Below, piece after piece: positions 1 to 25,783 of a stretch of DNA of 64,000 bases (position 1 is the first letter of the stretch; each line of letters starts with the position of its first letter). The stretch covers positions 19,917 through 83,916 of the forward strand of contig JANOQV010000146.1 in NCBI GenBank assembly GCA_031414955.1, given 5' to 3'. The notes under the pieces were generated by a model. It saw only the letters and a program-made list of their open reading frames with translations, did not search any database and was not told the DNA's origin. The DNA is from Pedosphaera sp. GTDB lineage: Bacteria > Verrucomicrobiota > Verrucomicrobiia > Limisphaerales > SIBH01. A program made the position numbers and the translations under genes.

Positions 1-766
1 CCGTTTCACTCAGCAGCGCAACGCCTGCGTGGTCGGACGCAAGACCATGGAGCGTTTCGGCTGGCGCGTGGGCCAGCGCATTACGCTCCTGGGCGCGATG
101 TGGCCCTGCAATCCAGAACTGGAAATCGCCGGCACCTTCACCGGCGGCGTGGATGAATCCAGCCTCTATTTCCACCACGAGTATGTTGATGAACTCCTCG
201 GCGACCAGGGCATCACCGGCCTGTTCTGGCTTCGCGCGGACTCACCGGCCTCGGCCTCGGCGCTGATCGAGCGCATCGACGCTGAGTTCGCCAACTCCGA
301 CGCCGAGACCATCACCGAAACCGAACACTCGTTCCAAATCGGCTTCGTCTCCCTGCTCGGCAATCTCAAGCTGCTCATCGGCTCCATCTGCACGGTCATC
401 GTGTTCACGCTCGTGCTCGTCACCGGCGGCACCATGAGCATGGCGATTCGCGAGCGGGTGAAGGAGATCGCCATTCTCAAGGCGCTGGGCTTTCCCGGCG
501 CGCAGGTCTTCGCCCTGATTCTGGCCGAGTCGTTCGTGCTGGCGATGCTGGGCGGACTGATTGGCCTGGTTGCCGCCTGGCTGGCGCTGCATTCGGCGGA
601 CTTCTACCAGGTTTCTCGCGGCATGTTCGTTCACTTCGCCCTCACGCCGGCAATTCTCTCCCGCACCCTCGCCGCCGCCGCCATGCTGGGCTTGGTGAGT
701 TGCCTCGTCCCGGCGTGGTCCGCCACCCGGCGCAGCGTCGTGGACGGACTGAGAACTGAGGACTGA
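1..766 (+). CDS. ABC transporter permease (MacB/FtsX family), 5'-truncated by window edge
   Basis: Frame is open from the window edge. C-terminal FtsX-type motif 'MSMAIRERVKEIAILKALGF' followed by TM helices. Confidence 0.85.
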   Translation, partial: RFTQQRNACVVGRKTMERFGWRVGQRITLLGAMWPCNPELEIAGTFTGGVDESSLYFHHEYVDELLGDQGITGLFWLRADSPASASALIERIDAEFANSDAETITETEHSFQIGFVSLLGNLKLLIGSICTVIVFTLVLVTGGTMSMAIRERVKEIAILKALGFPGAQVFALILAESFVLAMLGGLIGLVAAWLALHSADFYQVSRGMFVHFALTPAILSRTLAAAAMLGLVSCLVPAWSATRRSVVDGLRTED

Positions 767-778
767 GCACTGTTCCCA

Positions 779-1939
779 ATGGCTATTCCTCTGACCTACA
801 GCCTCCGCCACCTGCGTCTCCGCTGGCGCTCGACGCTCATCACCACGCTGTGCATCGCCCTGGTCGTGGCCGTGTTCGTGATGCTGATGTCATTGGCGAA
901 CGGATTGCAGGCGACCTACATCAGCTCGGGCGATGCACGCAATCTGATCGTGCTCCGCCAGGGTTCCATGGCCGAGTCGAGCAGCCAGATCACGATCGAC
1001 AACGTGCGCCAGGTCAAGTTCCTCGCCGGTATCGCGCGCGGCGCCGGCGATGAACCGCTGGCCTCCGCGGAGATCATGGTCCTCATCACTGTGCCCCGCG
1101 CCAGCGGGGGCAAGGCGCACGTCCAGGTGCGCGGGTTGAGTGCCGCCGGCTGGCAGTTGCGCACGCAGGTAAAAGTCCTGCAAGGCCGCGCGTTCAGGCC
1201 GGGCCAGCGCGAGTGCGTCGTGAGCAAGAAGGTGGCGGAGCGATTTCCCGATCTCGCGTTGGGCCGGACTTTCCGATCCGGCAAGCACGCCTGGACCGTG
1301 GTCGGTGTCTTCGAGGCGGGCCGCACGGCTTACGACTCCGAGGTGTGGGTGGACGCTGATGAAGCACGCTCCGCCTTCAACCGCACATTCTACGGCTCCA
1401 TCCTGCTGCGGCCCGTGGATGACGCCGCAGTGCTCGCGCTGAAGCAGCGCATCGAAGGGGACAAGCAGTTGCAGCTTCGCGTGCTCACCGAGCCGGAATA
1501 TTACGCCGAGCAGACCAAGACCGCCGCGCCCATCCGGTTCTTCGGCGTCGCGCTGGCGGCCGTGATGAGTATCGGAGCCGCCTTCTCGGCGATGAATGCC
1601 ATGTATGCCAGTGTCGGCCGGCGCGCGCGGGAGATCGGGACGCTGCGCGTGCTGGGCTTCCGCCGACGGAATATCTACTTCGCCATCATGCTAGAGTCCT
1701 TGTTCATTGCGATTGTCGGCGGCGTGATCGGCTGCGCATTATCTCTACCGATGCACGGACTGGCCACAGGCACCTTCAACTGGAGCACCTTCGCCGAGGT
1801 GGCGTTCGAGTTTCGCATCACGGGCCAGTTGCTCGGCGCGGGCCTGGTCTTCGCGATGGTCATGGGCGTGCTGGGCGGATTGCTGCCCGCGCGGTACGCG
1901 GCCCGGAAGCCAGTCCTGGAAGCGTTGCGAGGAAGCTGA
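779..1939 (+). CDS. ABC transporter permease (MacB/FtsX family)
   Basis: N-terminal TM, periplasmic domain, 'RAREIGTLRVLGF' motif and 3 C-terminal TMs. Paralog of the upstream gene. Confidence 0.9.
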   Translation: MAIPLTYSLRHLRLRWRSTLITTLCIALVVAVFVMLMSLANGLQATYISSGDARNLIVLRQGSMAESSSQITIDNVRQVKFLAGIARGAGDEPLASAEIMVLITVPRASGGKAHVQVRGLSAAGWQLRTQVKVLQGRAFRPGQRECVVSKKVAERFPDLALGRTFRSGKHAWTVVGVFEAGRTAYDSEVWVDADEARSAFNRTFYGSILLRPVDDAAVLALKQRIEGDKQLQLRVLTEPEYYAEQTKTAAPIRFFGVALAAVMSIGAAFSAMNAMYASVGRRAREIGTLRVLGFRRRNIYFAIMLESLFIAIVGGVIGCALSLPMHGLATGTFNWSTFAEVAFEFRITGQLLGAGLVFAMVMGVLGGLLPARYAARKPVLEALRGS

Positions 1940-1941
1940 CC

Positions 1942-4740
1942 ATGCTCCGCTTTCTCAACCTTCACCAATGGGTCGTCGGCTTTTTTGCCGCGTTGGCGCG
2001 GTATTCCATCAAGCATCCCAAGCGCGTCATCCTCTGTGCCTTGCTGGTCACGCTGGCGGTCGCGCCCGGGGCGCTGAAGCTGAAGCTCCGCACCGACGGT
2101 CATGCCCTGGTGGACAAGAGTGCTCCCGAAGTTCGCTACGACCAGTTGGTGCGCGAGAGATTTGGCATCCAGGATCCGGTGGTGGTCTTGATCGAAGCGA
2201 CGCATCCCGACGGCATCTACAACGCGGACACGTTGCAACTGGTGCGCGAACTGACCGAGGAATTCACGCGCCTCAAAGGCGTCGATTCCAACAAAGTGGT
2301 GAGCCTGGCCAACCAGCGGGGCTTCCGCAATCGCCCGGCCACGTTGCACTTCATGACCTTGTTGGAAAACCCGCGCCAGACGCAGGCCCAACTGGCCGAG
2401 CTGCGCGATGACTTGCGGCGTATCGAACTTTACACCGGTACGATTGTATCTTTCGACGGCCAGTCCACCGCCATCATGGTTGGCGCACCCGACGGGACTG
2501 ATCGGACCGCACTTTATCAGCAGGTGCGCGCAGTCATCTCCCGCATCACTGGCGGTGCGGACAAGATTACGGTCACAGGCCCGCCGGTGGCCGAGGCACT
2601 TTTGGGCACGCACATTCTGGAGGACCTCGGGGTGCCGGCGGCGCTTTTGGGCACCAGCACCCGCAGCGACGGAGACGGCTCCACGGGCTTTTCCAACCTC
2701 CACGAGCTTCGTCGCTTCATCGCCCGGCGGGTGGGGCTGGTGCCGGTGGCGATTCTGATCATGGCGCTGATTTTCCAAATCAGCTTTCGCCGCACTGTGG
2801 CCAGCGTGCTGCCTCTGATTGAGGTCGGTGCCTGCCTCGCCTTCACCTTCGGCCTGATGGGCTATTGCGGCGTGCCAGTCTATCTCACCATTGCGGTCAT
2901 GCCCGTGCTGCTCACGGCCATGGCGGTCACGGATGAGATTCACATCTACAGCCGCTACTTCGCGCTGGTGCATGAGCGTCCCAGTGCGCCTCAACCCGAC
3001 CTCGTGCGCCTGACGATGGAGGAAATGGTCTGTCCCATCGCCAATGCCTCGCTCACCACCGCCATCGGCTTTGTCTCGTTTGCCTTTTCGCCGCTGCCGC
3101 CGGTGCAGGCGTTTGGCATCTTCACCGCCGTCGGGTTAATCTTCTGCCTGTTCTGGACGCTCTGCGTGCTGCCTGCGCTGTTGACGCTGATTCCAAAGAG
3201 TTGGGTGATGACGCGTGGTGCCAGGGAGCGTGGTCTTCCGGCTGCTTCAACCTCCGCGGACTCAACAGCGTCAAAGCGGCCTGTTGGTCGCGCCCCCTTC
3301 GGACTCTTCGCCCTCTGGGCTGTTCGTCGCCGCTGGTGGATTGTGGGCGCGGTTGGTCTGGCCGTTGCCCTCACACCCCTGGGCCTGCGCCGTCTCGTTA
3401 TTCAAGACAGTTGGATTGATGGCTTCGAGCCGGAGAGCGAATTCAGCCACGCCACGCGCACCATCAACGAGCATTACCACGGCATGCACCTGCTCAAGGT
3501 GAGCCTCGACGCTGGCGAAACCCTGCGCGGCATGGTGGCCGCCACAAACGTAAGCTTCGCGAGAATTCTTCTTCCCACCAATCTCGTGGCGCAGCCGCAG
3601 TCCCTCGCGGGCCGCTGGCTTTACCTGTTTGCCGGCGACGCCTCGAACGCGCCTTCGTGGCGGGCCTCCATCGAATCCGCCACCGTGACGGGGGACAAGC
3701 TTGTCGTCATCACGCAGCAACGGGAATCAGACTCCATCGTCTGGACGAACCTGCCGCAGCTCGCTCACGTCCGCTTCGAGATCATTTCCCAGCCGTTCTT
3801 GCAGCAGCCCACGCTCGACGCTATTGCGAAGCTGGGCGCGTTCATCGAGCAGCATCGTGACTGCAAGGTAGGCAAGGTCTTGAGCGCACCCGATTACGTG
3901 GCGACGACGCGATTCATGGTGCGTCCCAACGAAGCCGGCTCGCGCTTCGTGCCCACCAACTCAATCGAGATCAAGTTACTCTGGGACTATTACCGCATCG
4001 TGCGCGGCCCGGAACAATTGCGTGAAGCCGTGGACACCAACCACGCCAGCGCGGTGCTGACCATATTTCTGAAGGAGGCCAACTTCCGCGACACCGCCCG
4101 GCTCTTGGCGGACATCCGCGACTACGAGCGCCGGGAGCTGATGCCGCTGAACATCCGCCTTGGCTTCGCCGGCGACGTGGCGGTGAGCCAGTCGCTCATC
4201 CGCGGCATCGTCACCACGCAGATGCAATCACTGTTCGGCTCGCTCTTGGGAATCTATCTCGTCACTGCGCTGCTGGGTCGCTCGTTGCGCTGGGGGTTGT
4301 ACGCGGTGATTCCCTGCACGCTGGCGGTGCTTTTCAACTTCACCGCCATGGGCTGGCTGGGCATTCCGCTCGGCGTGGCCACCTCCATGTTCGCGGCCAT
4401 GACGCTCGGCAACGGCGTCGATTTTGCGATTCATGTCCTGGAAGGTTTCACGGCTGCCCGCGGCCGTGGGCTGTCTCCTGATGAGGCTCTGGCGGAATCG
4501 CTGACGCGCACCGGACCCGCAGTGGTGGTGAACACGCTGGCCATTGCGCTGGGCTTTGGCGTGCTGATGTTGTCCCAGGTGCCGGCCAATGCCCGGCTCG
4601 GCTCGTTGATAATTCTCGGAATCGTGAATTGTCTGCTGGCGTCCCTCTTCTTGCTCCCAGCACTGCTCCATTGGTGGCCGCTGAAGGGTTCAGTCGATTC
4701 CACAACCAGCGCGCCGACGAACGCTCAAGGTGTTCCGTAG
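1942..4740 (+). CDS. MMPL/RND-family exporter (932 aa)
   Basis: Two TM blocks with two large extracytoplasmic loops. RND-like motifs 'AMAVTDEIHI', 'SLTTAIGF', 'GNGVDFAIH'. Starts 2 nt after the permease stop. Confidence 0.85.
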   Translation: MLRFLNLHQWVVGFFAALARYSIKHPKRVILCALLVTLAVAPGALKLKLRTDGHALVDKSAPEVRYDQLVRERFGIQDPVVVLIEATHPDGIYNADTLQLVRELTEEFTRLKGVDSNKVVSLANQRGFRNRPATLHFMTLLENPRQTQAQLAELRDDLRRIELYTGTIVSFDGQSTAIMVGAPDGTDRTALYQQVRAVISRITGGADKITVTGPPVAEALLGTHILEDLGVPAALLGTSTRSDGDGSTGFSNLHELRRFIARRVGLVPVAILIMALIFQISFRRTVASVLPLIEVGACLAFTFGLMGYCGVPVYLTIAVMPVLLTAMAVTDEIHIYSRYFALVHERPSAPQPDLVRLTMEEMVCPIANASLTTAIGFVSFAFSPLPPVQAFGIFTAVGLIFCLFWTLCVLPALLTLIPKSWVMTRGARERGLPAASTSADSTASKRPVGRAPFGLFALWAVRRRWWIVGAVGLAVALTPLGLRRLVIQDSWIDGFEPESEFSHATRTINEHYHGMHLLKVSLDAGETLRGMVAATNVSFARILLPTNLVAQPQSLAGRWLYLFAGDASNAPSWRASIESATVTGDKLVVITQQRESDSIVWTNLPQLAHVRFEIISQPFLQQPTLDAIAKLGAFIEQHRDCKVGKVLSAPDYVATTRFMVRPNEAGSRFVPTNSIEIKLLWDYYRIVRGPEQLREAVDTNHASAVLTIFLKEANFRDTARLLADIRDYERRELMPLNIRLGFAGDVAVSQSLIRGIVTTQMQSLFGSLLGIYLVTALLGRSLRWGLYAVIPCTLAVLFNFTAMGWLGIPLGVATSMFAAMTLGNGVDFAIHVLEGFTAARGRGLSPDEALAESLTRTGPAVVVNTLAIALGFGVLMLSQVPANARLGSLIILGIVNCLLASLFLLPALLHWWPLKGSVDSTTSAPTNAQGVP
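3225..3296. repeat. Degenerate GGAG-REP doublet, in frame within the MMPL gene
   Basis: ggagcgtggtcttccggctgcttc ... aagcggcctgttggtcgcgcccc forms an imperfect inverted repeat (needs G:T pairs). It encodes the linker 'RERGLPAASTSADSTASKRPVGRAP'. Confidence 0.45.
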
Positions 4741-5153
4741 GGGACGAGCGCCTCACGCAAAGTCTTCGGCACCGGCGTCGGCGTGAGTTTCTCGCCCTCC
4801 CGACGCAGGCAGGCGATCTGTTGCTGTCCGCGGGCCATCAGTTCCTGCGTCCCGTTCTTTACCCGCCAGTATTCGAAGAGCAGCGTGATGCGGCTCTGGG
4901 TCAACTCGCCCAGCCTCATGCGAATGACCACTTCGTCGAAGGCGTAAAGCTCGGAGAGGTATTCGCACTGCACGCTGACGGTCGCCAGACTGAGGCCGCG
5001 CGACAACTCAGCGATGATGTCCGGCGCGTGATCGTGCAGAAACATCTCCCGCACGCGCCCCTGCCACGAGACGTGGTTCACGTAATAGACGTTCCCGACG
5101 AGGTTGGTTTCCTCGAAGCTCACGATGTGACGGTGTTCGTAGGCGAGGCTCAT
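4725..5153 (-). CDS. E10: Enediyne biosynthesis thioesterase E10 (hotdog fold, 4HBT-like), 142 aa
   Basis: 'YEHRHIVSFEETNLVGNVYYVNHVSWQGRVREMFL' matches the SgcE10/CalE7/DynE7-type signature. Lies directly downstream of PKSE. ATG at 5153; the ORF-track extension is repeat-derived. Confidence 0.93.
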   Translation of the reverse strand: MSLAYEHRHIVSFEETNLVGNVYYVNHVSWQGRVREMFLHDHAPDIIAELSRGLSLATVSVQCEYLSELYAFDEVVIRMRLGELTQSRITLLFEYWRVKNGTQELMARGQQQIACLRREGEKLTPTPVPKTLREALVPYGTP

Positions 5154-5173
5154 GCGACGGGAAGACTGCGGGG

Positions 5174-5314
5174 AAAAACACCAAACACAAAACGGCAAAC
5201 ACCAAAGAAACACCAAGCTCCAAACTTCAAACACCAACTGGCGGTCGAAAGGCTCGGGTTGGTGTCGGCGTTCTTGGAGCTTAACTGATGTTTGATGTTT
5301 GGTGTTTGATGTTT
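5174..5314. repeat. Heptamer tandem-repeat element with two oppositely oriented arms
   Basis: Left arm aaacacc/aaacaca/aaacggc/aaacacc...caccaag/ctccaaa/cttcaaa/caccaac. Right arm ttggagc...tgatgtt/tgatgtt/tggtgtt/tgatgtt. Confidence 0.75.
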
Positions 5315-8300
5315 CATTCCACGCACACCCCTACCACCATCGTCTCCTCCCGCTCCCGCCCCTTGGTCACTCCTGTCACGACCGTCCTCGTACCGCTCTG
5401 CATCGTGATCCAGCCATCGGGCTGGCGGTCGGCCAGCGTGAGCGGCGCGTCGGAGAGAGCGCCGGATTTCTTCAGGCATTCGAGCGCGGCCCAGACGCGC
5501 GTGGCGGCGGTGTCGAGGTCGCCGCCATTGGCGACCAGTTCGGCGAGGCGGAATCGTTCCGCGCCCAGCAGACCGCGCCAGGTCTCGGGTGTGCGCGCGG
5601 AAATCATTTCCATGTCGCAGCCCACGCTGCCGGTGCTGCTCATGGCCAGGGTCAGATCACCGGCCCGCGTGACGGAGAGATGGTTCCCGCCCGGCACCTC
5701 CGGCTTGCCATCCGCGCGATGATGGAGAGTCGCGTCGTCACCGAGCAGGCGGCGGACGCTCTCCTCGCTGCCTGCGCCGCGCGCCGCGCTCACCGAGATG
5801 CGGGCGGCCGGCAGCAATTCCTCCAGGCGGCGCTCGACGTACGGGCCGAACAAACCATCCGGCCACGCGCTGTCAGTGGACAACTCCTCGACCTTGCGCA
5901 GGCGCAAGCCCTGCCAGGCCTCCAGCACCGCGCCGCCGGGACCGAGCAGTTCCAAATCGTATTCAAAGGTGTCGCCTTCGCGCTTCACTTCGCGCGCGTG
6001 CAGGAGCAGTTCCGGCAGGCAATCGCCGCTGTGCCACTGCTCCATTCGGCACGGCACCTCGCCCACCACGATGCGGCGCACGCCGACCGGCAGCAGCCGC
6101 GCGTGGGGGATGCAGGCCTGGATGGCGTGAATGGCGGCGTCGCGCACCGCGCCACAGCCGAGCACGCGTTCCTGCGGCAGGTAGCGGCCAAACCAGTCCG
6201 GCCCGATGTAAGGCGCGAGTTGCACCGCGCACTCCCGCGCCGTGAGCAGGCGATAGTTCAACACCCGGCGGAAACGTCCGGTGTGGAAGAGCAGCCGGTC
6301 GTAGAGGTCGCGTTCGATATCGAGCGCCGCGGCTGATCCTGGTGATCGGCCATCGGCCATCGGCCAATGGCTTTTCGTAGCGACGAATTGTTGCGCGCTC
6401 CCTCCGAAGCGGCACACCGCTTTGAAATGATCCGCCTGAAAACCCGTCTGCTCGCAGCGCAGCGCGACTTCGATCACGCCCGACTCGCGGACCAGCGCCG
6501 CGACGCGAATGACGTTCTTCCCGCCGCGCGGCACCACCACCGGACGAGACAGCTCGACGTTTTCAAAACTCGGCGGCTCGCTCGAACCAGCCAGGGCCAT
6601 CGCCACCTGGGCCATCGCTTCCAGTCCCATCACCGCCGGGAACAGCGGCTCGCCGTGGAAGACGTGTTCATCGACATACGGATCGGAGTCGGACGAGAGC
6701 GTCGAGTCCACGATCAACTCCACGCCGGGATAAAAGACGCGCGTGTGTTCGAGGAACCGGCGGAAGGGCAGCTCCGGCTTGGTGAGATTCAGCGTCGGCA
6801 TCTCGCCGAAGCGTCCGCTGATGACCACAGAAGTGGCTGGCAACTCGCGCCGCAAAAGCTCTTCGAGAATCTCCACGCCGGCCTCCGGTGAGATCGGCGT
6901 GATGCCCTGTTGACGCAACGATTCAATGCGCCCCAGCCGCGCGCCCATGCCCACGCCCGACCAGACGGACCACTCGGCGGCCAGGCAGCGGCAGCGCGGA
7001 TGCGCGGTCTGGAATTCCTCGGTGAGTTGGGTAAGCCATTCGTTCGCGACGGCGTAGTCGGCTTCGCCCTGCAACCCGGCGCGTCCGATGATCGAGCCAA
7101 AGGTGACGAAGAGTCGAAGCTTCTCCGGGTCGAGAGCGGCGAGCACATGGCGCGCGCCGTCAATCTTCGGCGCCAGCGTGCGGCGGAAGGCCGTCTCGTC
7201 GAGCGTGCCGAGGAGTTGCGGGACGTTCGCGCCCGCCGCATGAATGAAAGCCGTGATCGTCCCAAGCTCGCGTTGCACTTCCGTGAGCGCCATCGTCACC
7301 TGCGTCTCATCGGTCACATCCGCCGCCACGTAACGCACGCGGACCTTGACGGCGGCGAAGCGCTCCAGGTTGGCCGAAAGCTCGGCATCAGTGGCGGGCT
7401 GCGAGCGTCCCATGAGCACAAGCCGCGCGCCGGACTTGCGCGCCAGGTGCAACGCGCACTCCGCCGCGATGCCCTTGCCGCCGCCGGTGACGAGCAGGAG
7501 ATCGTCTGGACCAAGCGGCAACGCTCCGACACTTGCGGGAACCATCTCGCCTCGGTCGCCGAAAGGAAGAGCTTTCATCACCAACTCATGCCGCCGCCCC
7601 GACTCGTCGTAGCGCACGTCGCGGTGACCGTGGGCAAGTGCGGATTCGCGCACGATCCACTCGACGGCTTGGGGATGCTGCGGCGGCAGTTCGAGGACGA
7701 GGGTGTGAATGGTCGGCGACTCAAGGTGTAGCGTCCGGGCCAAGCTGCCGGCCCGCTGGCCCGTTTGCACGAGCACGAACTTGCCCTCGCCGAGGGCAAG
7801 CGCGGCCTTCGCGCTGGCGAGCAGCAGCCTGATTTGAGCTGCTTCAATCCGGGGCGGCAGGCAGACGATCACGCCGGCGCCGGGCATCGAGGTGAGAGCA
7901 GGACGCAATGCCGCCGCCAGGGGATCGGTCTCGATGGCGAATACTTGCCATGCTGAACTTTGCCCTTCGTTTCGCGCGGACTCGGCGGTCCGCGCTCCAA
8001 GCGGTGCCTCGATCCATTCGCAGACGAACGGACGCACCCACGAATCAACTCCCGATGGAACGCGTTCCGTCTCATTGAGCGCCGCGCCACGATTGCGCGT
8101 GAGTTCTTCGAGCGCGGCGGCGGCCCGGCCCACCGTGGCCGTGGCGAAATCCGTGAGACCGATGAGGGGCGGCAGCCCCAACCGCTTCGCCGCCTCGGCC
8201 ATGATCTGGCCCACGGAGATCGAATTGAGGTGCAAGTCTCCGAGCAGGCGGCTCTCGCTCGTGACCGTAGCCACGGGCAGTTCCGCGCGCTCGGCCACGA

Positions 8301-11196: not shown

Positions 11197-11201
11197 GTGG
11201 A

Positions 11202-11257
11202 AAACTCCAAACTCCAAACTCCAATCTCCAAATAAACACCAAGCTCCAAGCTCCAAC
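11202..11257. repeat. Heptamer tandem-repeat element immediately upstream of the pksE start
   Basis: aaactcc x3, aatctcc, aaataaa, caccaag, ctccaag, ctccaac. Same pattern as the left arm at 5174-5238. Confidence 0.8.
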
Positions 11258-11332
11258 AGCAGGTGGACGGCGTTGGATCGCTATGCTGGCGACGCCGCAC
11301 GCCTTCGCCATTCACCATGTGGCATTGGTCAT

Positions 11333-15224: not shown

Positions 15225-15287
15225 AAAAGGCTTTTTCTTCGTGTTACGAGTCTGGTTATCGCATTTGCCAAGACCCATGCCGAGCAA

Positions 15288-15318
15288 GAAAAAGACCGGG
15301 ATTGCTCCCGGTCTTTTC
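15288..15318 (-). terminator. Intrinsic terminator after the giant repeat gene (possibly bidirectional)
   Basis: Minus strand reads gaaaagaccggga-GCAA-tcccggtctttttc: a strong stem with a GNRA loop and a U tract. Confidence 0.8.
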
Positions 15319-15348
15319 TGATTCATTCCATTTCCACCAAGCGCCCGC

Positions 15349-18300
15349 CTACGGGCAGATGACGCGGTAGAATTTGTTCACGCCCGGTTCGACCGGCAGC
15401 GTGACGCCGGAGGCTCCCGGAACATCCGTCCACACCGTGGTACCAGGCCCGCTTAACGCCGTGGTGCATTGCAGGCGGAAGCCGGTGCCGGTCCACGAGA
15501 TGGTCACGCTGGTGCCATCAGGCGAACGCGTGATGGCAAGGGACGCCGGTCCGACGCACGGCGATCCCGGCACGTTGAGGTGCATGGACGCCGGGCCACT
15601 GACGGCGGGACTCCAGTTCTGGCCGCCATCGAGGCTGATCTCCGTGAAGATGTCGAAGAAGCTGCCGATGCGGTAGGGCGCGCCGGTGGGCGAGGTACGA
15701 ATGCTGGTGCGGCCCAAGGAAGCCTTGCTCGGACTTTCACGGACCATCACTCCGTTGGGCAGGCTGCCGCCGCTGATGTTCAAGGCCAGCATCTCGGTGT
15801 CAAAGAAGCGGGTGTCGCCGCTGTCCTGACTGCTGGTAACCCGCGTCGTGACGGCGGCTGGAGCCGTGACATGAATCGGCTGCTGGCCGCCCTGGTGCAG
15901 ATCAAATGTCACCATGGAGCCGAAGCCGTGAGTCACGCTGCCACCTGGAGGAGGCGGAGGCGAGTTGGTCAGGAATCGCTCATGGCTGGCGTTGCTGATG
16001 ATGATGCCATTGGCGTAGAGCTGGTGCCACTGCTGCGGGCTGATGTACTGCCCGTTGAGCGGCGGCAGATTAGGAGTGGAGGCCGGCTGCTCAGGCGCTT
16101 CGCAGATCAGCTCCACATGGGCGGCGGCGGGCACGGGCGCCCAGTTTTGGCCGCCGTCCAGGCTCAGTTCGACGAAGACATCAAAGAAGCTGCCGATGCG
16201 GGACGTGCCATCAGACTGCGGCGCGATGGCCGTGCCGCCATGTGATTGGCGGGTCGGACTTTCGCGCAAGCGGATGCTGGGCGGCAGGTCGCCACCCTGA
16301 ATGTCCAGTTGCAGCATCTCGGTGTCATAGACTTGAGTGCCGTCGGACTCGGTGCCGCGGTGGCGCACGCTCACCTCTACTTGTGCCGGCGCGCGCATGG
16401 GAACGAAGTTCACTCCACCGTCCTGCGACACCTCCATGTCCACCTGCGACCCAAAGGTGTGCGTCTGGGACGAGCCCGGGGGCGGCGGCGGCAGCGATTG
16501 GGTGAAGAACTTGTGCTTCACGTCACGGATGACGATGCCCTGGGCGGTCAGAATGTGGTAGAGCGCCGGACTCACGTAGAGGTCATTGGGCGGCGGCAGC
16601 AGTTGCGTGCCTGCCGGTACGGAAGGTACGGTCAGTGGGTCGCGGCCCAGTTGGACTGGCGCGGCCTCCTCACCGGGCGACCAAGTTGCGCCGCCATCCA
16701 GGCTGAGTTCTGTGAACACGTCGAAGAAGCTGTCGATCATGAAGCCTCCGCCGGGCGCGGACTGCACGGCCGTGCGTCCGATCGAGGCCCGGGTCGGGCT
16801 TTCCCGAATCATGAGGCCGCCGGGGCTGCTCAGGTTGAGCGCCAGCATCTCGGTGTCATAGACCTGCGTGCCGCTTGGCTCAACGCCCACATGCGTCACC
16901 TGCACCGTCACATCCGCCGCGCCCGCCAGCGGGGACCAGGTCTGCCCGCCGTCCGACGATACCTGCCCGGAAACTTGCGAGGGGAAGGTGTGGATCTGGC
17001 TGCCGCCCGGGGGCGGCGGCGGGAAGCTCTGCAGGAAGCGGCGATGGCTCACGTTGCTGATGATGATGCCGTTGGCGTAGAGCTGATGCCACTGCTGCGG
17101 CGAGACGTACTCACCCTGCTGCGGCGGCAGCAGAGGCGTCGGGAACCAGCGCGGTTTGCGCGGGCGCACTGTCACCGTGAAGCTGCAACTGGCGCTGCCG
17201 TTCACACTACTGGCGGTGCAGGTCACCGTGGTGGTTCCGACCGGGAAGTTGCTTCCACTGGGCGGCGTGCAGGAGTAAGTCACCGGCGCGCCACATGTAT
17301 CCACCGGCCCCACCGTCGGGGCGAAGGTCACGACACGGCCCGCCGGCGTGAGGGCGAAGGCTGTGATGTTGGCCGGGCAGACGATGAGCACCGTGCAGGG
17401 CACTGGGTTCGGCACCACATGGACGTTGGCCGGACCGGTCAGCGAGGGCTGCCAGGTCTGTCCGCCGTCCGCGCTCAACTCCGTAAAGATGTCAAAGAAG
17501 CTGGCCACACTGTGTGTGCCGTCGGCTGCGCTGGTGCGAATGCTGGTGCGGCCCAGCGAGGCCTTGCTCGGGCTTTCGCGCACCATCATGCCGACGGGCA
17601 GGCCACCGCCGCTGATGTTGAGCGCCAGCATCTCGGTCTCGAAGAAGCGGGTGTCACCGTCGCTCTGCATTTCGCGCACGCTCACCGTCACCTGGGCGGG
17701 CAGGGTGGTGTGCTGCCACGTCGTCCCGTTGTTGAGCGAGAGGTCGCACTCCACGTCCGATCCGAAGCTGTGCGTCTCAGTCACGCCCGGGGGCGGCGGC
17801 GGGAAGGACTGGGTGAAGTGTTTGTGGCTCACGTTGCTGATGATGATGCCCTGGGCGTAGAGCGCGTGCCACTGCTGCGGGCTGATGTACTGCCCGTTGA
17901 GCGGTGGCAGATTGGGATTGGGCACCGGCATGGGCGGAGCTTCGCAGATCAGTTCCACGCGGGCCGGGGTCGGCGCAGGGGTCCAAGTTTGGCCACCGTC
18001 CACGCTCAGATCCACGAAGATGTCGAAGAAGCTGCCGATGCTGTGCCCGTTGGGCGTCGGGGCGATGACCGTGCCGCCTTGCGAGGCGCGGGTCGGGCTT
18101 TCACGGAGCATCACTCCGACCGGTAGATCGCCACCCTGCAGATCCAGTTGCAGCATCTCAGTGTCATAGAGCTGAGTTTCATCGGGCGCAGTGCCGCGGT
18201 GTTGCACATGGACTGCCACCGCCGCCGGGGCACGCCGGGGCTGGAAGGTCTGGCCACCGTCGAGGCTCACTTCCATGTCCACTTGCGAACCAAAGGTATG

Positions 18301-21300
18301 CATCGCTCCCGGACCGGGCGGGGGCGGCGGCTGGCTTTGGGTGAAGAACTTGTGCCGCACGTTGCGGATCTGGATGCCCTGGGCGAGCAGCAGGTGATAC
18401 TGCTGCGGCGAGACATACAGATCATTGGGCGGCGGCAACAACTGGGTCGAGGCCGGGATCGGCGTGATGGTCCGCGGGTCAGTCCGCAACTCTACCTGCG
18501 CCGCCTCCTGGGCGGGCGACCAGTTCGCCCCGCCATCCAGACTGAGTTCCGTGAAGACGTCGAAGAAGCTGTCGATGGCAAAGCCACCGCCCGGCGCGGC
18601 CTGCACAGTGGTGCGGCCAGTCGAGGCGCGGGTCGGGCTTTCACGGATCATGAAGCCACCGGGGCTGGCCAGATTGAGCGCCAGCATCTCGGTGTCATAG
18701 AGCTGAGTGCCATCGGGATCGGTGCCCACATGCGTGACCTGCACCGTCACATCCGCCGGGGCCGTGGCCGGGGTGAAGGTCGTGCCGCCATCTGTTGACA
18801 ACAGCAATTCCACGGTCGATCCGAACGAATGCGTTTCCGACGTGCCGGTTGCGGGCGGCGGGAAGCTTTGCAGGAAGTGGCGGTGGCTCACGTTGCTGAT
18901 GATGATGCCATTGGCGTAGAATTGGTGCCATTGCTGGGGCGAAATGTACTCACCCTGCGGCGGCGGCAGCAACGGCGTCGGGAACCAGCGCGGCTTGCGG
19001 GCCCGCACCGTCACCGTGAAGGAGCAGGTGGCGCTCTGGCCACAGCCGTCCGTGACCACACAGGTCACGGTCGTGGTCCCAACCGGGAAGGGCGATCCGC
19101 TGGGCGGATTGCAGACCACGTTGAACGGCGCACAGCCTCCACTCACGATCGGAGCCGGGTAATTGACGACAACTCCGGCCGCAGTGGGCGCGGTCACGCT
19201 GACGTTTGGCGGACAGGCGATGGCCAGCGGCGGGGGCGGGTTGGTCGGAATGTTGAGTTGCACGGAGACGGGGCCGCTCACGGCGGGACTCCAAGTGGCC
19301 CCGCCATCAAGACTGATTTCCGTGAAGATGTCGAAGAAGCTGGAGACGCGGTAGTCGCCGGGCGTGGTGCGGATGCTGGTGCGTCCAAGCGATTGTTTGG
19401 TCGGGCTTTCCCGGAGTTGGACGCCCCCTGGCAGCGCGCCTCCGCTAATGTTGAGGGCGAGCATCTCGGTGTCGAAGAAGCGCGTGCTGCCGCTGTCGAG
19501 GCTGCTGCTCACCTGAGCGGTCACACTGGCGGGCGCAGTCACATGCGCCGGGGGTTGGCCCGGCTGGAATAAATCGAAAGTGACCATCGACCCGAAGTTA
19601 TGAACCTGCGATCCGCCGGGCGGCGGAGGCGGCTGGTTCTGGGTGAACCGATCATGGCTGGCATTGCTGATGATAATGCCGTTGGCGTAGAGCTGATGCC
19701 ACTGGTCGGGCGAGACGTATTCGCCGTTGAGCGGCGGCAGGTTGGGCGTGGGCACCGTTTGTTCGGCGGCCGGGTTGACGAGTTCCACATGGGCCGGGGC
19801 CGGGGCCGGGGTCCAGCTTGCGCCTCCGTCCAGGCTCACTTCCACGAAGATGTCGAAGAAGCTGTGGATGCGATGTGTGCCATTGGTGTTGGGCGCGATG
19901 GATGTTCCACCGATGGACTGCTTGGTCGGGCTTTCCCGGATCAGCAGCCCCGGTGGCAGGGCGCCTCCGCTGAGATCCAGTTGCAACATCTCGGTATCGA
20001 AGCTTACCCCGTCGTTGCCGGACGAACCGATGTTGTGGACCCGGACCGTCACAGCGGCGGGCGCGCGCACGGCGGAGAAGGACAGCCCGCCATCAGTCGA
20101 GAGCATCATGTCCACCTGCGAATCGAAGGTGTGCGTGTTGGTCCCGCCCAGGGGCGGCGGCGGCTGCGAACCAGTGAAGAAGCTGTGGCTCACGTTGCTG
20201 ATCACGATGCCGCTGGCCAGCGCCAGATGGTAGTCCTGCGGACTGACGTAGGCGCCATTGGGCGGCGGGAGGTCGCCCGTGGGCATGTCCACCGGCGGGA
20301 CGGTGGTCGGATCCTTGCGCAGTTCAACGTGCGCGGCCTGCGCGGCGGCGCTCCAAGTGGCACCTCCATCCAGGCTGACCTCGGTGAAGATGTCGAAGAA
20401 ACTGATCATGCAAACATTGTCGGGGTTATTCCCGAAACCGGTCCCGCGGATGATGACCAGACCGGGTGAAGCCAGGGTCGGGCTTTCGCGCAACCGGATG
20501 CCGGGCGGCAGGTTGCCTCCGCTGATGTCGAGTTGCAGCATCTCGGTGTCAAACGTCCGGACCTGACCCGTCCCGGGTTGGGCATAGACGCTGACGCTGA
20601 CCGCCGCGGGCGCGCTCACGCTTTGGAAACTCAGGCCGCCATCAACGGAGATTTCGCAATCCACCTGCGAGTCGAACTCATGCACCTGAATGGTGCCGGG
20701 CGCGGGCGGAGGCGTGCTCTGGGTGAAGTAGCGATGCTTGGGACTGCGGATGATGATGCCGTTGGCATAGAGCTGATGGTACAGTTGCGGGCTGATATAC
20801 ATGCCGTTGGTCGGCGGCAGCCCGTCGTCGTTGAAGGGAATGTCCGGAATCGGCGGACGGACGGTCACACTGAACGAGCAGTTGGCGCTGCCACCACAAC
20901 CGTCCGTGACCACACAGGTCAAGGTCGTCGTCCCGATCGGGAAAGGCGAGCCGCTGGGCGGAACGCAGACCACGCTGACCGGCGCACAACCGCCACTGAC
21001 GGCGGGGGGTGGGTAGTTGACGACGGCTCCAGCCGCAGTGGGCGCGATCACAGTCATGTTCGGAGGGCAGGTGATGGCCAGCGGCAGCGGCGGATTGTTC
21101 GGGATGTTGAGATGCACGGAGACAGGGCCGCTGACGGCCGGACTCCAAGTTGCGCCACCGTCGAGGCTCATCTCGGTGAAAATGTCGAAGAAACTGCCGA
21201 CACGGTAGTCGGTGGGAGTGGTGCGGATGCTGGTCCGTCCGAGCGACGCCTTGCTTGGGCTTTCGCGCACCATGATGCCGCCGGGGGCGCTGATGTTCAG

Positions 21301-24300
21301 GGCCAGCATCTCGGTGTCGAAGAAGCGAGTGGAACCGGAATCCTGACTGCTGCTCACCTGCGTGGTCACGCTGGCCGGGGCCGTCATGGGCACGGGTGCC
21401 TGGCCCTGCTGGATGAGATCGAAATGCACCATCGACCCGAAGTTATGAACCTGCGATCCGCCGGGGGGCGGCGGCGGCTGGCTCTGGGTGAACCGGTCAT
21501 GGCTCGCGTTGCTGATGATGATGCCGTTGGCGTAGAGCTGGTGCCAGCGCTCGGGCGAAATGTATTCGCCATTCAACGGCGGCAGGTTCGAGTTGGTGGC
21601 TGGCTGTTCGGGCGCGGGCATGACCAGTTGCACATGGGCCGGAGCCTGAGCCGGAGACCAGTTCTGGCCACCGTCCAAACTCACTTCCACGAAGATGTCG
21701 AAGAAGCTGCCGATGCGCAGCAGATCGAAGTCGGGATCGCCAATGGGCACGCCTGAGGCTGCGATGGATGTTCGACCGCGCGAGGGCAACGTCGGGCTTT
21801 CGCGGAGCCTCACCGCAGGCGGGAGATCGCCGCCCTGAATGTTGAGCGAGAGCATTTCGGTGTCGAACGTGCCTCCGGTCGTGCCGTCCACCCGCACCTC
21901 GACGCCGGCCGGGGCGCGCACGGACTGGAAGGTCGCGCCGCCATCGAACGACAAATCCATGTCCACCTGCGAATTGAAGGTGTGAATTGCCGTCCCACCC
22001 ACGGGCGGAGGCGGTTGCGAATGAGTGAAGAAGCTGTGGCTCACGTTGCTGATGACCACGCCTTGGGCGGTAAGGATGTGGTAATCCGCCGGGCTGACGT
22101 AGGCGCCATTGCGCGGAGGCAAATCGCCGGTGGGCGCGCTGACCGGCGGGGTCAGGGTGACGTCCCGCCGCAGCTCGACATGGGCCGGTTGCAGAGCCGG
22201 GCTCCAACTCGCGCCGCCGTCCAAGCTGAGTTCAGTGAAGACGTCGAAGAAGCTCGAGATCATGAATCCTCCCGGCGCGGTGCGCATGGTGGTGTGGCCG
22301 GGCGAAGGCAGCGTCGGGCTTTCGCGAATTATCACGCCCACCGGCAGGGTGCCGCCAGCGATATCGAGTTGCTGCATCTCGGTGGCAAACTGCTGGGTCG
22401 GCCCGCCAGGAGTGTGGGTCACCTGCACGGCGACACCAGCCGGCGCGGTGTGACGCACAAAATTAGAGCCACCATCGGTCGAAATATCCATCGAGACCGA
22501 CGAGCCAAAGGTATGGACCTGAACCGTGTTCGGCGGCGGCGGCGGCGTGGATTGGGTGAACTTGTTGTGGCTGATGTTGCTGATGATGATCCCGTTCGCG
22601 TAAAGCTGGTGATACAGCGCCGGGCTGATGTACGTGCCGGTCGGCGGGGGCAGGTTCGGCGTAGGGAAGAAGATTTCCGGCGCGGGCGGAACCGGTGGAT
22701 TGACCGTCACGTTGAACGAACAGGTGGCGCTGCCACCGCAGGTGTCGCTGGCGGTGCAATTCACCGTCGTCGTGCCCAGCGGGAACGGCGAACCGCTGGG
22801 CGGAGAGCAAACCACCGTCGGCGGAGTGCAGCCGCCACCCACGGTGGGCGGGGGATAATTTACCACCGTACCGGCTGCTCCATTCACCGTCACGTTGGCC
22901 GGGCAGGCGATGGTGACGGGAGGCGGGCCGCCCAAGGTGGTCACGCTGACCGAAGCCGGGCCGGAAAGCGACGGGTGCCAGGTCGCGCCGCCATCCAAGC
23001 TAAGTTCGACGAAAATATCGAAGAAACTGGAGATGCGATAATCGCCAGGAGCGGCCTGCCGGATGCTAGTCTTGCCCGTGGACGCCTTGGTGGGGCTTTC
23101 ACGAATCATCATGCCTGGAGGCAAACTGCCGCCGTTGAGATTCAATTGCAGCATCTCGGTGTCGAAGAAGCGCGTCGTCGCCGTGTCCATCGTCGTGCTG
23201 CTGACATTGACCATCACGTTCGCCTGGGCGGTGACCGGATTGAAGGTGACGCCACCATCCATCGAGACCTGCATCTGCACGGCTGAACCGAAGGCGTGGG
23301 GCTGGCTGCCGCCGGGCGGCGGTGGCGGTTGGTGCTGAAGGAAGTCCAGGTGGCTCACGTTGGTGATGTAAATGCCCATCGCGAAATACGCGTGCCAGTC
23401 CTGGGGACTGACGTACTGGCCAGCCGGCGGGAGGTCGGGACTGGTGAACGGTTTCTCCGGTGCCTTGCTGCGCAGTTCGACATGCACCGGGCCGTTGGTC
23501 GCGGGATTCCAAGTGCCGCCGTTATCCAAGCTGACCTCGGTGAAGATGTCGAAAAAGCTCGCGATTTTGAAAGTGCCGTCCGGCATCGGTATCACGCGTG
23601 TCCGGCCGCGGGACGGCTCGGTTGGGCTTTCGCGCACCATCACCCCAAGAGGCAGGTCGCCGCCCGAGAGGGAAAGTGCGGTCATCTCCGTGTCGTAAGT
23701 GCCTGATCCCGCATCCGCCACGGTCACGGTCACCGGGGCCGAGACGCGAGCGGCCGTAAAGGTGACGCCACCATCGAGTGAAATATCCATGTCCACCGTG
23801 GAGCCGAAGTTTTCGGTGTTGGTTCCACCGGGTAGTCCAGTATTGCCTCCGGCCGGGTACGACTGAAGGAATCCGCTGTGGCTGACGTTGCTGATCACGA
23901 TGCCCACGGCGTAGAGCGCGTGCCATTGGTCAGGGGAGACATATTGGTCGTTCGGCGGCGGGAGCAGATCCGTGGGTTCGTCCACCGGCGGAGCGGTGAT
24001 GGATTTCTTCAGCTCAACATGCACCGGCGTAAGGGCGGGACTCCAGTTCGCGCCGCCATCCAGACTGACCTCGGTGAAGATGTCGAAAAAGCTGCCAATC
24101 ATGTAACCACCAGCCAGAGAGCGCACGGTGGTTTGGCCGGTCGAAGCGAGGGTTGGGCTTTCACGAATCATCACCCCCGGCGGCAGCGAGCCTCCTTGGA
24201 TGTCGAATGATTGCATTTCCGTGGCGAAGAAATCCTTGCCCAGCACAGTGCCGATATGACCGACGCCGACCACCACCGCAGCGGGGGCGGAGACGGTCTG

Positions 24301-25554
24301 GAATGTCACGCCGTTGTCGGCGGAAATCTGGAAGGTGGCCGTGGAATTGAATGGATGCGAATTGGAAAGTCCCGGTCCCGGCGGGCCGTAGAGGACGTTG
24401 CTGATGCCGGGGTTGACGAAGCGATCATGACTGGAATTGCTGATGATGATGCCGTTGGCGTAGAGCTGATGCCACTGGGCCGGGCTGACGTATTCGCCGG
24501 CCGCCGGTGGCAGGTTGTTGGTCAAGGTAAACACTTCCGGGCCGCCCGGTTGGAGCACTTGAATCGTGAAGGAGCAATTCGCCGTCTGGCCGCAGGTATC
24601 ACTCGCAGTGCAGTTCACGGTGGTCGTGCCGATGGGGAAATTGGCACCGGTCGGCGGGACGCAGGAAATGGTCGGAGGCGTGCAGCCGCCGCCCGCTGAA
24701 ACGAAGAAACCCACCGTGGCACCGCCGGGACCGGTTCCGGCCACGGTCAAATTGGGCGGGCAGGTGATGTTGACAGGCGGATCGATGATTTGCGCGAAGC
24801 GGACACCATCAAACCACCCGCCGCCAAGCTGCGTTCCCAGTCCCGGGCCAAGGATCACAGTGTCATAGGTGTCAACCGCCGCGCCGTTGAACGTCCGGGA
24901 AAGAATTCCGTCCACATAGAATTTAATCGTTGATCCGGGGGGCAGAACCTCAATGTCGAAGCGATGCCAACCGATCGAGCGATTGGGCGAACCAGCGCCG
25001 TTAAGGTTGAAAACTCCAGTTGTGCCGGCGGCAGCGGGTCCAAAGGCGACACGCCCTTGGTATTTCGTTGCGGTAAAAACTTCCCCCGTAAGAGTCGTGG
25101 CATTGAATTTTCCGGCCGCGATCAGGGCGTCCAGGCTGCCGCTGGCCACTGTGCCGCCGTTAGGCAGTCCTGAGCCTCCGGAGTGGCCTCTTATTTCGTT
25201 GTACGCGCGCGTGGCTCCGACCGTTCCCCCATTGGTCCCTTCGTCATAGAAGTAGAAGGTGAAGAGCAAGTGCCCCCCGAACTCGCCGCCCAGATTTCGG
25301 TGCATGCGGTCGATGGACGTGTTCATGAAGGCGCTGCGTATGCCGCCGCCCGGCACCACGTTGGTGGGCGTGGAAATATCGAGAGTGTTCGCGGTGGTGA
25401 CAGTCCAGTTACCGACGGGGAACAGGATTTGGCCGCTCTCGAAATCATCGGAGAAGACGATGTTGGTCACGCTGGCCGCACTGGCCGCGCTACACAGGGA
25501 CAACAGGAGGCACAAGGAGAGTACGCGCCTTGCCGCGAAGAGATTTTTACTCAT
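15349..25554 (-). CDS. Giant secreted repeat protein, 3401 aa: signal peptide, N-terminal beta-sandwich-like domain, 5 x [HYR-like domain + 3 x ~180-aa repeat], C-terminal 'FYRV' domain
   Basis: Signal peptide 'MSKNLFAARRVLSLCLLLSLCSAASAA'. Five 'CP(P/A)N..V...CxPP(S/T)GxxFPxGTTTVxC...CSF' modules. Fifteen repeats sharing 'Y(V/I)SPxx(W/Y)H', 'DTEM', 'RESP' and 'SFFD(I/V)FxE(V/L)SLDGG..W'. Confidence 0.92.
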   Translation of the reverse strand: MSKNLFAARRVLSLCLLLSLCSAASAASVTNIVFSDDFESGQILFPVGNWTVTTANTLDISTPTNVVPGGGIRSAFMNTSIDRMHRNLGGEFGGHLLFTFYFYDEGTNGGTVGATRAYNEIRGHSGGSGLPNGGTVASGSLDALIAAGKFNATTLTGEVFTATKYQGRVAFGPAAAGTTGVFNLNGAGSPNRSIGWHRFDIEVLPPGSTIKFYVDGILSRTFNGAAVDTYDTVILGPGLGTQLGGGWFDGVRFAQIIDPPVNITCPPNLTVAGTGPGGATVGFFVSAGGGCTPPTISCVPPTGANFPIGTTTVNCTASDTCGQTANCSFTIQVLQPGGPEVFTLTNNLPPAAGEYVSPAQWHQLYANGIIISNSSHDRFVNPGISNVLYGPPGPGLSNSHPFNSTATFQISADNGVTFQTVSAPAAVVVGVGHIGTVLGKDFFATEMQSFDIQGGSLPPGVMIRESPTLASTGQTTVRSLAGGYMIGSFFDIFTEVSLDGGANWSPALTPVHVELKKSITAPPVDEPTDLLPPPNDQYVSPDQWHALYAVGIVISNVSHSGFLQSYPAGGNTGLPGGTNTENFGSTVDMDISLDGGVTFTAARVSAPVTVTVADAGSGTYDTEMTALSLSGGDLPLGVMVRESPTEPSRGRTRVIPMPDGTFKIASFFDIFTEVSLDNGGTWNPATNGPVHVELRSKAPEKPFTSPDLPPAGQYVSPQDWHAYFAMGIYITNVSHLDFLQHQPPPPPGGSQPHAFGSAVQMQVSMDGGVTFNPVTAQANVMVNVSSTTMDTATTRFFDTEMLQLNLNGGSLPPGMMIRESPTKASTGKTSIRQAAPGDYRISSFFDIFVELSLDGGATWHPSLSGPASVSVTTLGGPPPVTIACPANVTVNGAAGTVVNYPPPTVGGGCTPPTVVCSPPSGSPFPLGTTTVNCTASDTCGGSATCSFNVTVNPPVPPAPEIFFPTPNLPPPTGTYISPALYHQLYANGIIISNISHNKFTQSTPPPPPNTVQVHTFGSSVSMDISTDGGSNFVRHTAPAGVAVQVTHTPGGPTQQFATEMQQLDIAGGTLPVGVIIRESPTLPSPGHTTMRTAPGGFMISSFFDVFTELSLDGGASWSPALQPAHVELRRDVTLTPPVSAPTGDLPPRNGAYVSPADYHILTAQGVVISNVSHSFFTHSQPPPPVGGTAIHTFNSQVDMDLSFDGGATFQSVRAPAGVEVRVDGTTGGTFDTEMLSLNIQGGDLPPAVRLRESPTLPSRGRTSIAASGVPIGDPDFDLLRIGSFFDIFVEVSLDGGQNWSPAQAPAHVQLVMPAPEQPATNSNLPPLNGEYISPERWHQLYANGIIISNASHDRFTQSQPPPPPGGSQVHNFGSMVHFDLIQQGQAPVPMTAPASVTTQVSSSQDSGSTRFFDTEMLALNISAPGGIMVRESPSKASLGRTSIRTTPTDYRVGSFFDIFTEMSLDGGATWSPAVSGPVSVHLNIPNNPPLPLAITCPPNMTVIAPTAAGAVVNYPPPAVSGGCAPVSVVCVPPSGSPFPIGTTTLTCVVTDGCGGSANCSFSVTVRPPIPDIPFNDDGLPPTNGMYISPQLYHQLYANGIIIRSPKHRYFTQSTPPPAPGTIQVHEFDSQVDCEISVDGGLSFQSVSAPAAVSVSVYAQPGTGQVRTFDTEMLQLDISGGNLPPGIRLRESPTLASPGLVIIRGTGFGNNPDNVCMISFFDIFTEVSLDGGATWSAAAQAAHVELRKDPTTVPPVDMPTGDLPPPNGAYVSPQDYHLALASGIVISNVSHSFFTGSQPPPPLGGTNTHTFDSQVDMMLSTDGGLSFSAVRAPAAVTVRVHNIGSSGNDGVSFDTEMLQLDLSGGALPPGLLIRESPTKQSIGGTSIAPNTNGTHRIHSFFDIFVEVSLDGGASWTPAPAPAHVELVNPAAEQTVPTPNLPPLNGEYVSPDQWHQLYANGIIISNASHDRFTQNQPPPPPGGSQVHNFGSMVTFDLFQPGQPPAHVTAPASVTAQVSSSLDSGSTRFFDTEMLALNISGGALPGGVQLRESPTKQSLGRTSIRTTPGDYRVSSFFDIFTEISLDGGATWSPAVSGPVSVQLNIPTNPPPPLAIACPPNVSVTAPTAAGVVVNYPAPIVSGGCAPFNVVCNPPSGSPFPVGTTTVTCVVTDGCGQSATCSFTVTVRARKPRWFPTPLLPPPQGEYISPQQWHQFYANGIIISNVSHRHFLQSFPPPATGTSETHSFGSTVELLLSTDGGTTFTPATAPADVTVQVTHVGTDPDGTQLYDTEMLALNLASPGGFMIRESPTRASTGRTTVQAAPGGGFAIDSFFDVFTELSLDGGANWSPAQEAAQVELRTDPRTITPIPASTQLLPPPNDLYVSPQQYHLLLAQGIQIRNVRHKFFTQSQPPPPPGPGAMHTFGSQVDMEVSLDGGQTFQPRRAPAAVAVHVQHRGTAPDETQLYDTEMLQLDLQGGDLPVGVMLRESPTRASQGGTVIAPTPNGHSIGSFFDIFVDLSVDGGQTWTPAPTPARVELICEAPPMPVPNPNLPPLNGQYISPQQWHALYAQGIIISNVSHKHFTQSFPPPPPGVTETHSFGSDVECDLSLNNGTTWQHTTLPAQVTVSVREMQSDGDTRFFETEMLALNISGGGLPVGMMVRESPSKASLGRTSIRTSAADGTHSVASFFDIFTELSADGGQTWQPSLTGPANVHVVPNPVPCTVLIVCPANITAFALTPAGRVVTFAPTVGPVDTCGAPVTYSCTPPSGSNFPVGTTTVTCTASSVNGSASCSFTVTVRPRKPRWFPTPLLPPQQGEYVSPQQWHQLYANGIIISNVSHRRFLQSFPPPPPGGSQIHTFPSQVSGQVSSDGGQTWSPLAGAADVTVQVTHVGVEPSGTQVYDTEMLALNLSSPGGLMIRESPTRASIGRTAVQSAPGGGFMIDSFFDVFTELSLDGGATWSPGEEAAPVQLGRDPLTVPSVPAGTQLLPPPNDLYVSPALYHILTAQGIVIRDVKHKFFTQSLPPPPPGSSQTHTFGSQVDMEVSQDGGVNFVPMRAPAQVEVSVRHRGTESDGTQVYDTEMLQLDIQGGDLPPSIRLRESPTRQSHGGTAIAPQSDGTSRIGSFFDVFVELSLDGGQNWAPVPAAAHVELICEAPEQPASTPNLPPLNGQYISPQQWHQLYANGIIISNASHERFLTNSPPPPPGGSVTHGFGSMVTFDLHQGGQQPIHVTAPAAVTTRVTSSQDSGDTRFFDTEMLALNISGGSLPNGVMVRESPSKASLGRTSIRTSPTGAPYRIGSFFDIFTEISLDGGQNWSPAVSGPASMHLNVPGSPCVGPASLAITRSPDGTSVTISWTGTGFRLQCTTALSGPGTTVWTDVPGASGVTLPVEPGVNKFYRVICP

Positions 25555-25767
25555 AATTCAAACGTTGTTGGTTGAACCGCGCACACTGAACACTGACCGA
25601 GACACCAAGACACCTAAGTTTCCGACACCACCAACTCATCTACACCAAGACACCAGACACGGAGGCAAACCGCTGAAAAACACTTCACCTGAAAACATCC
25701 TGAACACCAAAAATAGAATCTCGCTAGGATCGCCGGTGAAGTTCAAAAGCGAGAATGCCCAGCCCGA

Positions 25768-25783
25768 TGCAAATTTCAAGCCA
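25768..25783 (-). promoter_or_regulatory. Putative sigma54 (-24/-12) promoter of the giant repeat gene
   Basis: Minus strand TGGCTTGAAATTTGCA, i.e. GG-N10-GC with TTGCA, about 215 nt upstream of the ATG in an AT-rich intergenic region. Confidence 0.6.

Follow-up and report, generated by a model that had tools for sequence, protein, structure and literature searches.

Predicted DynF-like barrel arrays beside an enediyne-type polyketide synthase cassette and putative lipid exporters in Pedosphaera sp.

Introduction

According to PMC10308959, enediyne-type polyketide synthase (PKS) genes are common in phyla without a reported enediyne. In PMC4480864, the minimal enediyne PKS cassette is defined by five genes, E3, E4, E5, E and E10, and in other clusters the PKSE together with the thioesterase yields a heptaene (PMC9992847). 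Here we analyze a cassette of this type in Pedosphaera sp. (GCA_031414955.1), located in a stretch of 64,000 nucleotides (nt) of contig JANOQV010000146.1 (positions 19,917-83,916, forward strand; hereafter, the window), where it adjoins a gene for a giant secreted repeat protein and genes for transporters. We assign a probability of roughly 0.55 to the reading that a linear polyene, made by the enediyne-type PKS, is exported by an MMPL transporter and ABC permeases and held non-covalently in the 15 barrels of a surface-anchored protein.

The apoproteins of neocarzinostatin and C-1027 are small and diffusible and have an immunoglobulin-like fold, and hand-off of cargo from an RND transporter to a soluble carrier is a familiar paradigm. 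The full five-gene cassette is said to yield iodinated polyene and polyyne intermediates, and the tiancimycin ortholog of the enediyne-pathway protein DynF reportedly acts as a lyase on an iodinated polyyne. DynF itself (PDB 6UBL, PMC8725005) is a single domain of 211 amino acids (aa), its printed sequence shows no evident signal peptide, and the literature describes it as holding a C16 chain. An early stage of sungeidine biosynthesis requires its ortholog Sgd15, and the role of DynF is unconfirmed in its structure paper (PMC8725005).

Results

A giant protein built of repeat triplets

The giant protein starts with a signal-like hydrophobic N-terminus and an N-terminal domain, continues with five units of one HYR domain and three barrel repeats each, and ends with a C-terminal tail:

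15349-25554, minus strand: giant secreted protein gene, 3401 aa
24781-25473, minus strand: N-terminal domain of about 230 aa, without a family match and common to a few other repeat proteins
24544-24774, 22687-22917, 20851-21081, 18997-19227 and 17161-17391, minus strand: five HYR spacer domains, each preceding one repeat triplet
15574-24528, minus strand: fifteen type A repeats of about 170 aa, with mutual identity of 46-84%, predicted to be eight-stranded DynF-like barrels
15352-15555, minus strand: C-terminal tail of 68 aa, common to six other proteins of the genome, without a Pfam or NCBIfam match

The count of 15 repeats in the initial annotation agrees with our own, each of three repeat motifs being found 15 times. 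The tail is likely a surface-sorting domain and the giant protein likely surface-anchored. Triplets are the commonest arrangement in relatives as well (60 runs of 3, 59 of 1 and 26 other), with up to 16 barrel copies per chain.

Single-barrel genes in tandem arrays represent an alternative to the giant chain (L064:7620-12086, L181:5736-10008, L061:1996-4251), and at loci L007, L089, L106 and L147, cassette-linked proteins without a sorting tail end on a barrel 11-39 nt before the E3 match. Short Asp-box matches account for the BNR and Reelin families that Pfam reports on the giant protein, and a sialidase or propeller reading was therefore rejected. DUF6073 and DUF6004, an Atlas lead for the repeat only (0.80-0.83), gave no Pfam match on the giant protein and none over the cut-off in 3 genomes, and an Atlas search with the type B repeat gave no usable match.

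Predicted barrel fold and its relation to DynF

A predicted eight-stranded antiparallel barrel superposes on 6UBL and defines the class of DynF-like barrels, a match at the level of the class rather than a direct one of the window's own repeat. Within this class, the type A repeat is predicted to be a barrel sharing the DynF fold and, because of the motif register and the range aligned in one comparison, is likely circularly permuted relative to DynF. Permuting the type A alignment brought no gain against type B in HHalign (93.5 versus 93.7%). Type C is linked by profile comparison, with HHalign values of 80% to type A and 46% to type B; a type C protein is also encoded by the cultured bacterium Aquisphaera insulae. 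Five sequence profiles of types A, B and C retrieved no DynF match among PDB sequences, only short Asp-box matches; by eye, the repeat motifs resemble the printed DynF sequence. Compared to DynF and Sgd15, the repeat is secreted, tailed, arranged in triplets, likely circularly permuted and without a sequence-level match.

The initial annotation had drawn an analogy with the secreted apoproteins of 9-membered enediynes and proposed that the product is loaded onto, or modifies, the repeats. The structure prediction relates the repeat to a lipid-binding enediyne-pathway protein, DynF, but not to the classical apoproteins, and no sign of covalent modification was found. The neocarzinostatin family (PF00960) is absent from the giant protein, and a genome search for it was also blank, with its control silent too. 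What the repeat has in common with the neocarzinostatin and C-1027 apoproteins is the idea of a secreted protein stabilizing the reactive product of the cassette, whereas its family and fold are different and it is multivalent and likely anchored.

An alternative is that the barrels are extracellular DynF-like enzymes, which would convert the polyene or polyyne, once exported, to a more reactive compound at the cell surface, away from the DNA of the producer. The requirement for Sgd15 early in sungeidine biosynthesis (PMC8725005) is consistent with this possibility, as are the invariant or near-invariant polar residues of the type A repeat (His34, Thr96, Glu97, Arg115, Glu116, Ser122, Ser139 and Asp142, most of which also held on a further check) and the two His and one Glu retained in type B. 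However, 15 copies per chain, and up to 16 in relatives, better suit stoichiometric binding than catalysis, most barrel genomes lack a PKS, and barrels are kept in relatives without detectable E4/E5 (see below). We consider the enzymatic role unlikely.

The adjoining enediyne-type cassette

The genes of the cassette follow the giant gene on the same strand:

14277-15224, minus strand: E3 (DUF1702), 315 aa
12304-14280, minus strand: E4/UnbV (FG-GAP and ASPIC/UnbV), 658 aa
11333-12307, minus strand: E5/UnbU-like membrane protein, 324 aa, with six hydrophobic segments and a weak RnfD-family match; named E5 from its position
5314-11196, minus strand: PKSE, an iterative type I PKS (KS-AT-ACP-KR-DH-PPTase), 1960 aa
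4725-5153, minus strand: E10 thioesterase, 142 aa

Together, these genes make up the minimal enediyne PKS cassette as defined in PMC4480864, with the same five genes, the same order and intact PKSE motifs (compare also PMC9992847). Pfam recognizes the ketosynthase (KS), AT, KR and DH domains of the PKSE, and ten active-site motifs, including those of ACP and PPTase, are all present.

Flanking the cassette are genes for transporters, for the giant protein and for a peptidase, along with sugar-nucleotide genes and regulators; no core-tailoring or peripheral enediyne genes were found among the neighbors in the window. By comparison, a Streptomyces cluster (L187) has a second DUF1702 gene, a flavin reductase, a P450 and other tailoring genes, whereas the window cassette lacks these and is flanked by a surface protein and transporters. 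The KS of the window's close relatives lies outside the actinobacterial clade (support 0.998), which holds L186-L188 and was recognized from three records with actinobacterial names.

At 13 of 36 non-actinobacterial loci, no more than 600 nt separate E3 from the PKSE; 6 of the 13 have a barrel. Whole-genome searches for E4 and E5 in five of the genomes with such loci, all of them incomplete assemblies, found neither gene in G235, only E4-like genes of 32-35% identity and no E5 in G059 and G258, a 35% pair elsewhere in G282, and true orthologs elsewhere in G298. G235 carries E10 on another contig. The parts that persist across relatives are the barrel, E3, the PKSE and E10, and the product is therefore probably a heptaene or a close derivative (PMC9992847). 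Since the cassette is without flanking tailoring genes and searches of two close relatives recovered no E4/E5 orthologs, a 9-membered enediyne chromophore is unlikely.

Distant E4/UnbV-like genes (23-28% identity), unlinked to a PKS, are present on at least 8 contigs of the source genome (C277, C162, C115, C125, C254, C230, C273 and C10). The cassette at L119:3971-9997 has no barrel; it contains two E4-E5 pairs in tandem, together with a regulator and a flavin-reductase-like gene. An AraC-family regulator, absent from the window, is often located directly downstream of E10 (for example, L069:1217-2077, L082:1171-1983 and L109:7479-8285); at L069 (checked with Pfam) and L082, it lies between E10 and the barrel gene.

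Export genes and gene arrangement

Three transporter genes converge on the cassette, and a hairpin separates the giant gene from E3:

1-766, plus strand: ABC permease 1 (FtsX/MacB-type), 380 aa, starting 376 nt before the window
779-1939, plus strand: ABC permease 2 (MacB_PCD and FtsX), 386 aa
1942-4740, plus strand: MMPL/HAE3-type RND transporter, 932 aa
15289-15318, minus strand: 13-bp hairpin with a GCAA loop and a terminal U run

The nearest solved relatives of the MMPL are HpnN and NPC1, and it falls under every curated family cut-off for HpnN, BstA and HAE3 RND membership (HAE3, 211.7 versus 351.9; HpnN, 107.5 versus 751.85). It shares with HpnN, BstA/B/C and the NPC1-NPC2 pairs the RND branch and repeated adjacency to an extracytoplasmic domain of lipid-binding type: 11 of 22 MMPL orthologs (at least 41% identity) are no more than about 700 nt away from a barrel domain. 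In contrast to those systems, it has a conserved insert of its own, and its cargo is likely a polyene. Complex prediction for MMPL residues 40-860 and one repeat scored 0.00, which speaks neither way. No ABC ATPase was found among open reading frames (ORFs) of at least 150 aa upstream on the contig; because a paralogous permease pair with an ATPase is present on contig C308 of the source genome, the ATPase may be supplied in trans.

A second module, without a PKS, is found in the source genome (L001:8420-16452, that is, C54:16419-24451), where an MMPL paralog (52%) lies directly upstream of a gene for a secreted protein of 1654 aa. This protein contains four LamG domains, Ig domains and two barrels, one each of types B and A, and its gene is followed by that for a CotH kinase/LTD protein of 2103 aa. 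Distant MMPL genes (19-35%) beside other non-actinobacterial cassettes (L156:14306-16789, L158:2936-5230, L161:3036-5408 and L166:4804-7086) suggest repeated recruitment of RND lipid exporters.

The arrangement reported initially was confirmed for the giant gene, located 124 nt upstream of the E3 ATG at 15224, and for the convergent MMPL and E10 genes, which overlap by 16 nt at their 3' ends (4725-4740). A longer E3 start proposed by the ORF finder (15326) would shrink the former gap to 22 nt. The compact block of about 26 kb held up as a grouping beyond chance, but not in its boundary: since permease 1 starts 376 nt before the window, the block extends beyond coordinate 1.

The hairpin has a z-score of -2.5, with 5 of 200 shuffles equally good, and is likely a leaky terminator or an mRNA stabilizer; similar hairpins, called by eye, occur in 7 of 15 related gaps. 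A promoter/terminator scan of 14800-16000 found none and left the hairpin unflagged, and an Rfam scan of positions 1-32000 yielded 0 matches. Short degenerate 7-nt repeat clusters (TTGGAGC/TTGGTGT type), partly inverted, occupy the gaps between PKSE and E10 (5155-5310) and between E5 and PKSE (11197-11330) and the region upstream of the giant gene (25560-25700). Further upstream, 272 nt from the giant gene, co-oriented and behind a nucleotidyltransferase gene, lies a gene (25827-30001, minus strand) for a 1110-aa protein with a fucokinase-like part (NF009948, below the cut-off) and a UDPGP-like part.

Recurrence of barrels, exporters and cassettes

We surveyed 251 genomes of the order, counting a PKSE-type KS at 71% identity or more (28 further genomes reached at most 42%); this data set overlaps with those described below, some genomes and loci being the same contigs. 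Type A repeats were detected in 17 genomes (two weak), E3 and the PKSE-type KS in 8 each, type B in 7, type C in 4, the MMPL ortholog in 9 and the permease ortholog in 6. Of the 8 PKS genomes, 7 carry type A; in the remaining one, G157, a type C barrel lies beside E3. Among the 243 non-PKS genomes, 13 carry some barrel type. All 9 genomes with an MMPL ortholog carry type A, all 6 with a close permease ortholog carry the PKS, and neither ortholog is found outside these sets. Fisher tests without the source genome (G000) and G235 gave p values of 2e-6 (PKS and repeat) and 6e-10 (MMPL and repeat), both overstated by kinship.

When loci were collected by the repeat, a PKSE match was present in the fetched flank at 9 of 65, recorded as Verrucomicrobiota (3), Bacteroidota, Ignavibacteria, Planctomycetales, Proteobacteria, Nitrospirota and one titled Bifidobacteriaceae. 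The last of these (L003, from G235) was placed in the genus of the source genome, and its title is likely a mislabel. When loci were collected by the cassette (the best 80 of 525 metagenome KS loci), barrels were found outside the actinobacterial clade at 24 of 57 loci, 23 of the 35 with one adequate flank and 14 of the 19 with both, and inside it at none (0/23, 0/15 and 0/6, respectively). An earlier count with shallower profiles had given 25 of 80.

These patterns bear on the possibility that surface proteins use the barrel generically, for lipid binding or adhesion, and that it lies next to the cassette because both descend from a single mobile island rather than because it uses the product. 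The family is indeed large (2428 representatives) and fused to many other domains, most carriers lack a PKS, and related genomes are not independent. However, three divergent barrel types, with different sorting tails, each occur at cassettes across the KS tree, and their positions differ (upstream of E3, between E3 and E4, as at L061, or downstream of E10). Furthermore, a protein from an enediyne pathway of actinobacteria matches the fold, and the GC content at third codon positions of the block equals that of the flanking genes. We regard this explanation as very unlikely, and a functional link between barrel and cassette as highly probable.

Several observations weigh against the polyene-holding reading. 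The association between barrel and cassette runs one way: 10 of the 17 type A genomes of the order lack a PKS, and among 50 more genomes with a barrel (of 57 loci first listed), a PKSE-like KS is present in 10, one of them doubtful (53%), and missing from 40, with an MMPL in 4. Five of the 19 well-flanked non-actinobacterial cassettes have no barrel, and orphan barrel genes have no recurrent neighbor family among 135 genes scanned (cut-off 1e-15, first 420 aa only). In addition, co-expression of DynF did not lead to heptaene loading. The co-occurrence anticipated in the initial annotation thus holds insofar as the repeat, the MMPL and the permease pair track the cassette, but not in reverse, many repeat genomes being without a PKS.

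This asymmetry would be directly explained if the barrels were a protective sponge, trapping a toxic compound (polyene, polyyne or enediyne) extracellularly. The product would then be a diffusible weapon, to which producers are self-resistant and non-producers immune thanks to the barrels. In the order, no PKS genome is without a barrel and most barrel genomes are without a PKS, as such a role would predict, and the lack of recurrent neighbors around orphan barrel genes fits as well. However, a dedicated MMPL accompanies the barrel even without a nearby PKS, suggesting delivery to or from it, and the cassette is not flanked by the tailoring genes expected for a finished antibiotic. A sponge appears quite unlikely.

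Discussion

The reading we favor, a polyene held on the cell surface, builds on which genes are present and how they are ordered, on the intact motifs of the PKS, on the arrangement of the repeats as 5 x 3 and on the recurrent co-occurrence of barrel, MMPL, permeases and cassette. The barrel fold and the kinship to DynF come in as predictions. Under this reading, the enediyne-type PKS likely makes a linear polyene at the membrane, a heptaene or a derivative formed via E3 (and E4/E5 where present), which the MMPL and the ABC permeases would extract from the inner membrane. The likely surface-anchored protein, with its 15 predicted DynF-like barrels, would then hold the polyene non-covalently, stabilizing and displaying it, for example, as a light or oxidant shield or as a contact deterrent, and the hairpin before E3 might set many carrier chains per enzyme. 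In PKS-free genomes, the barrels may have other long-chain lipids as ligands, or they may scavenge this same polyene.

Our literature search, largely outside subscription papers, found no paper describing barrel arrays at enediyne-type cassettes. The block joins two open questions, the presence of such PKS genes in phyla without enediynes, as presented in PMC10308959, and the role of DynF (PMC8725005). Tentatively, many unexplained enediyne-type PKS cassettes outside Actinobacteria might be polyene display systems, consisting of a PKS, lipid exporters and surface arrays of DynF-family barrels, rather than antibiotic clusters. In that case, a bound conjugated polyene or polyyne would coat the cell, and DynF would be a captured member of a larger carrier family, with the enediyne pathway as an elaboration. 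Genome mining would gain a rule separating likely non-antibiotic cassettes from true enediyne clusters, and the family offers natural DynF-like domains by the thousands, some of them small single-domain proteins, for assays of binding and catalysis, as well as a possible natural stabilizer for the unstable polyene precursor of enediynes. If the reading is correct, these bacteria likely keep a reactive polyene on their surface rather than make an antibiotic, in a pairing that recurs in several phyla.
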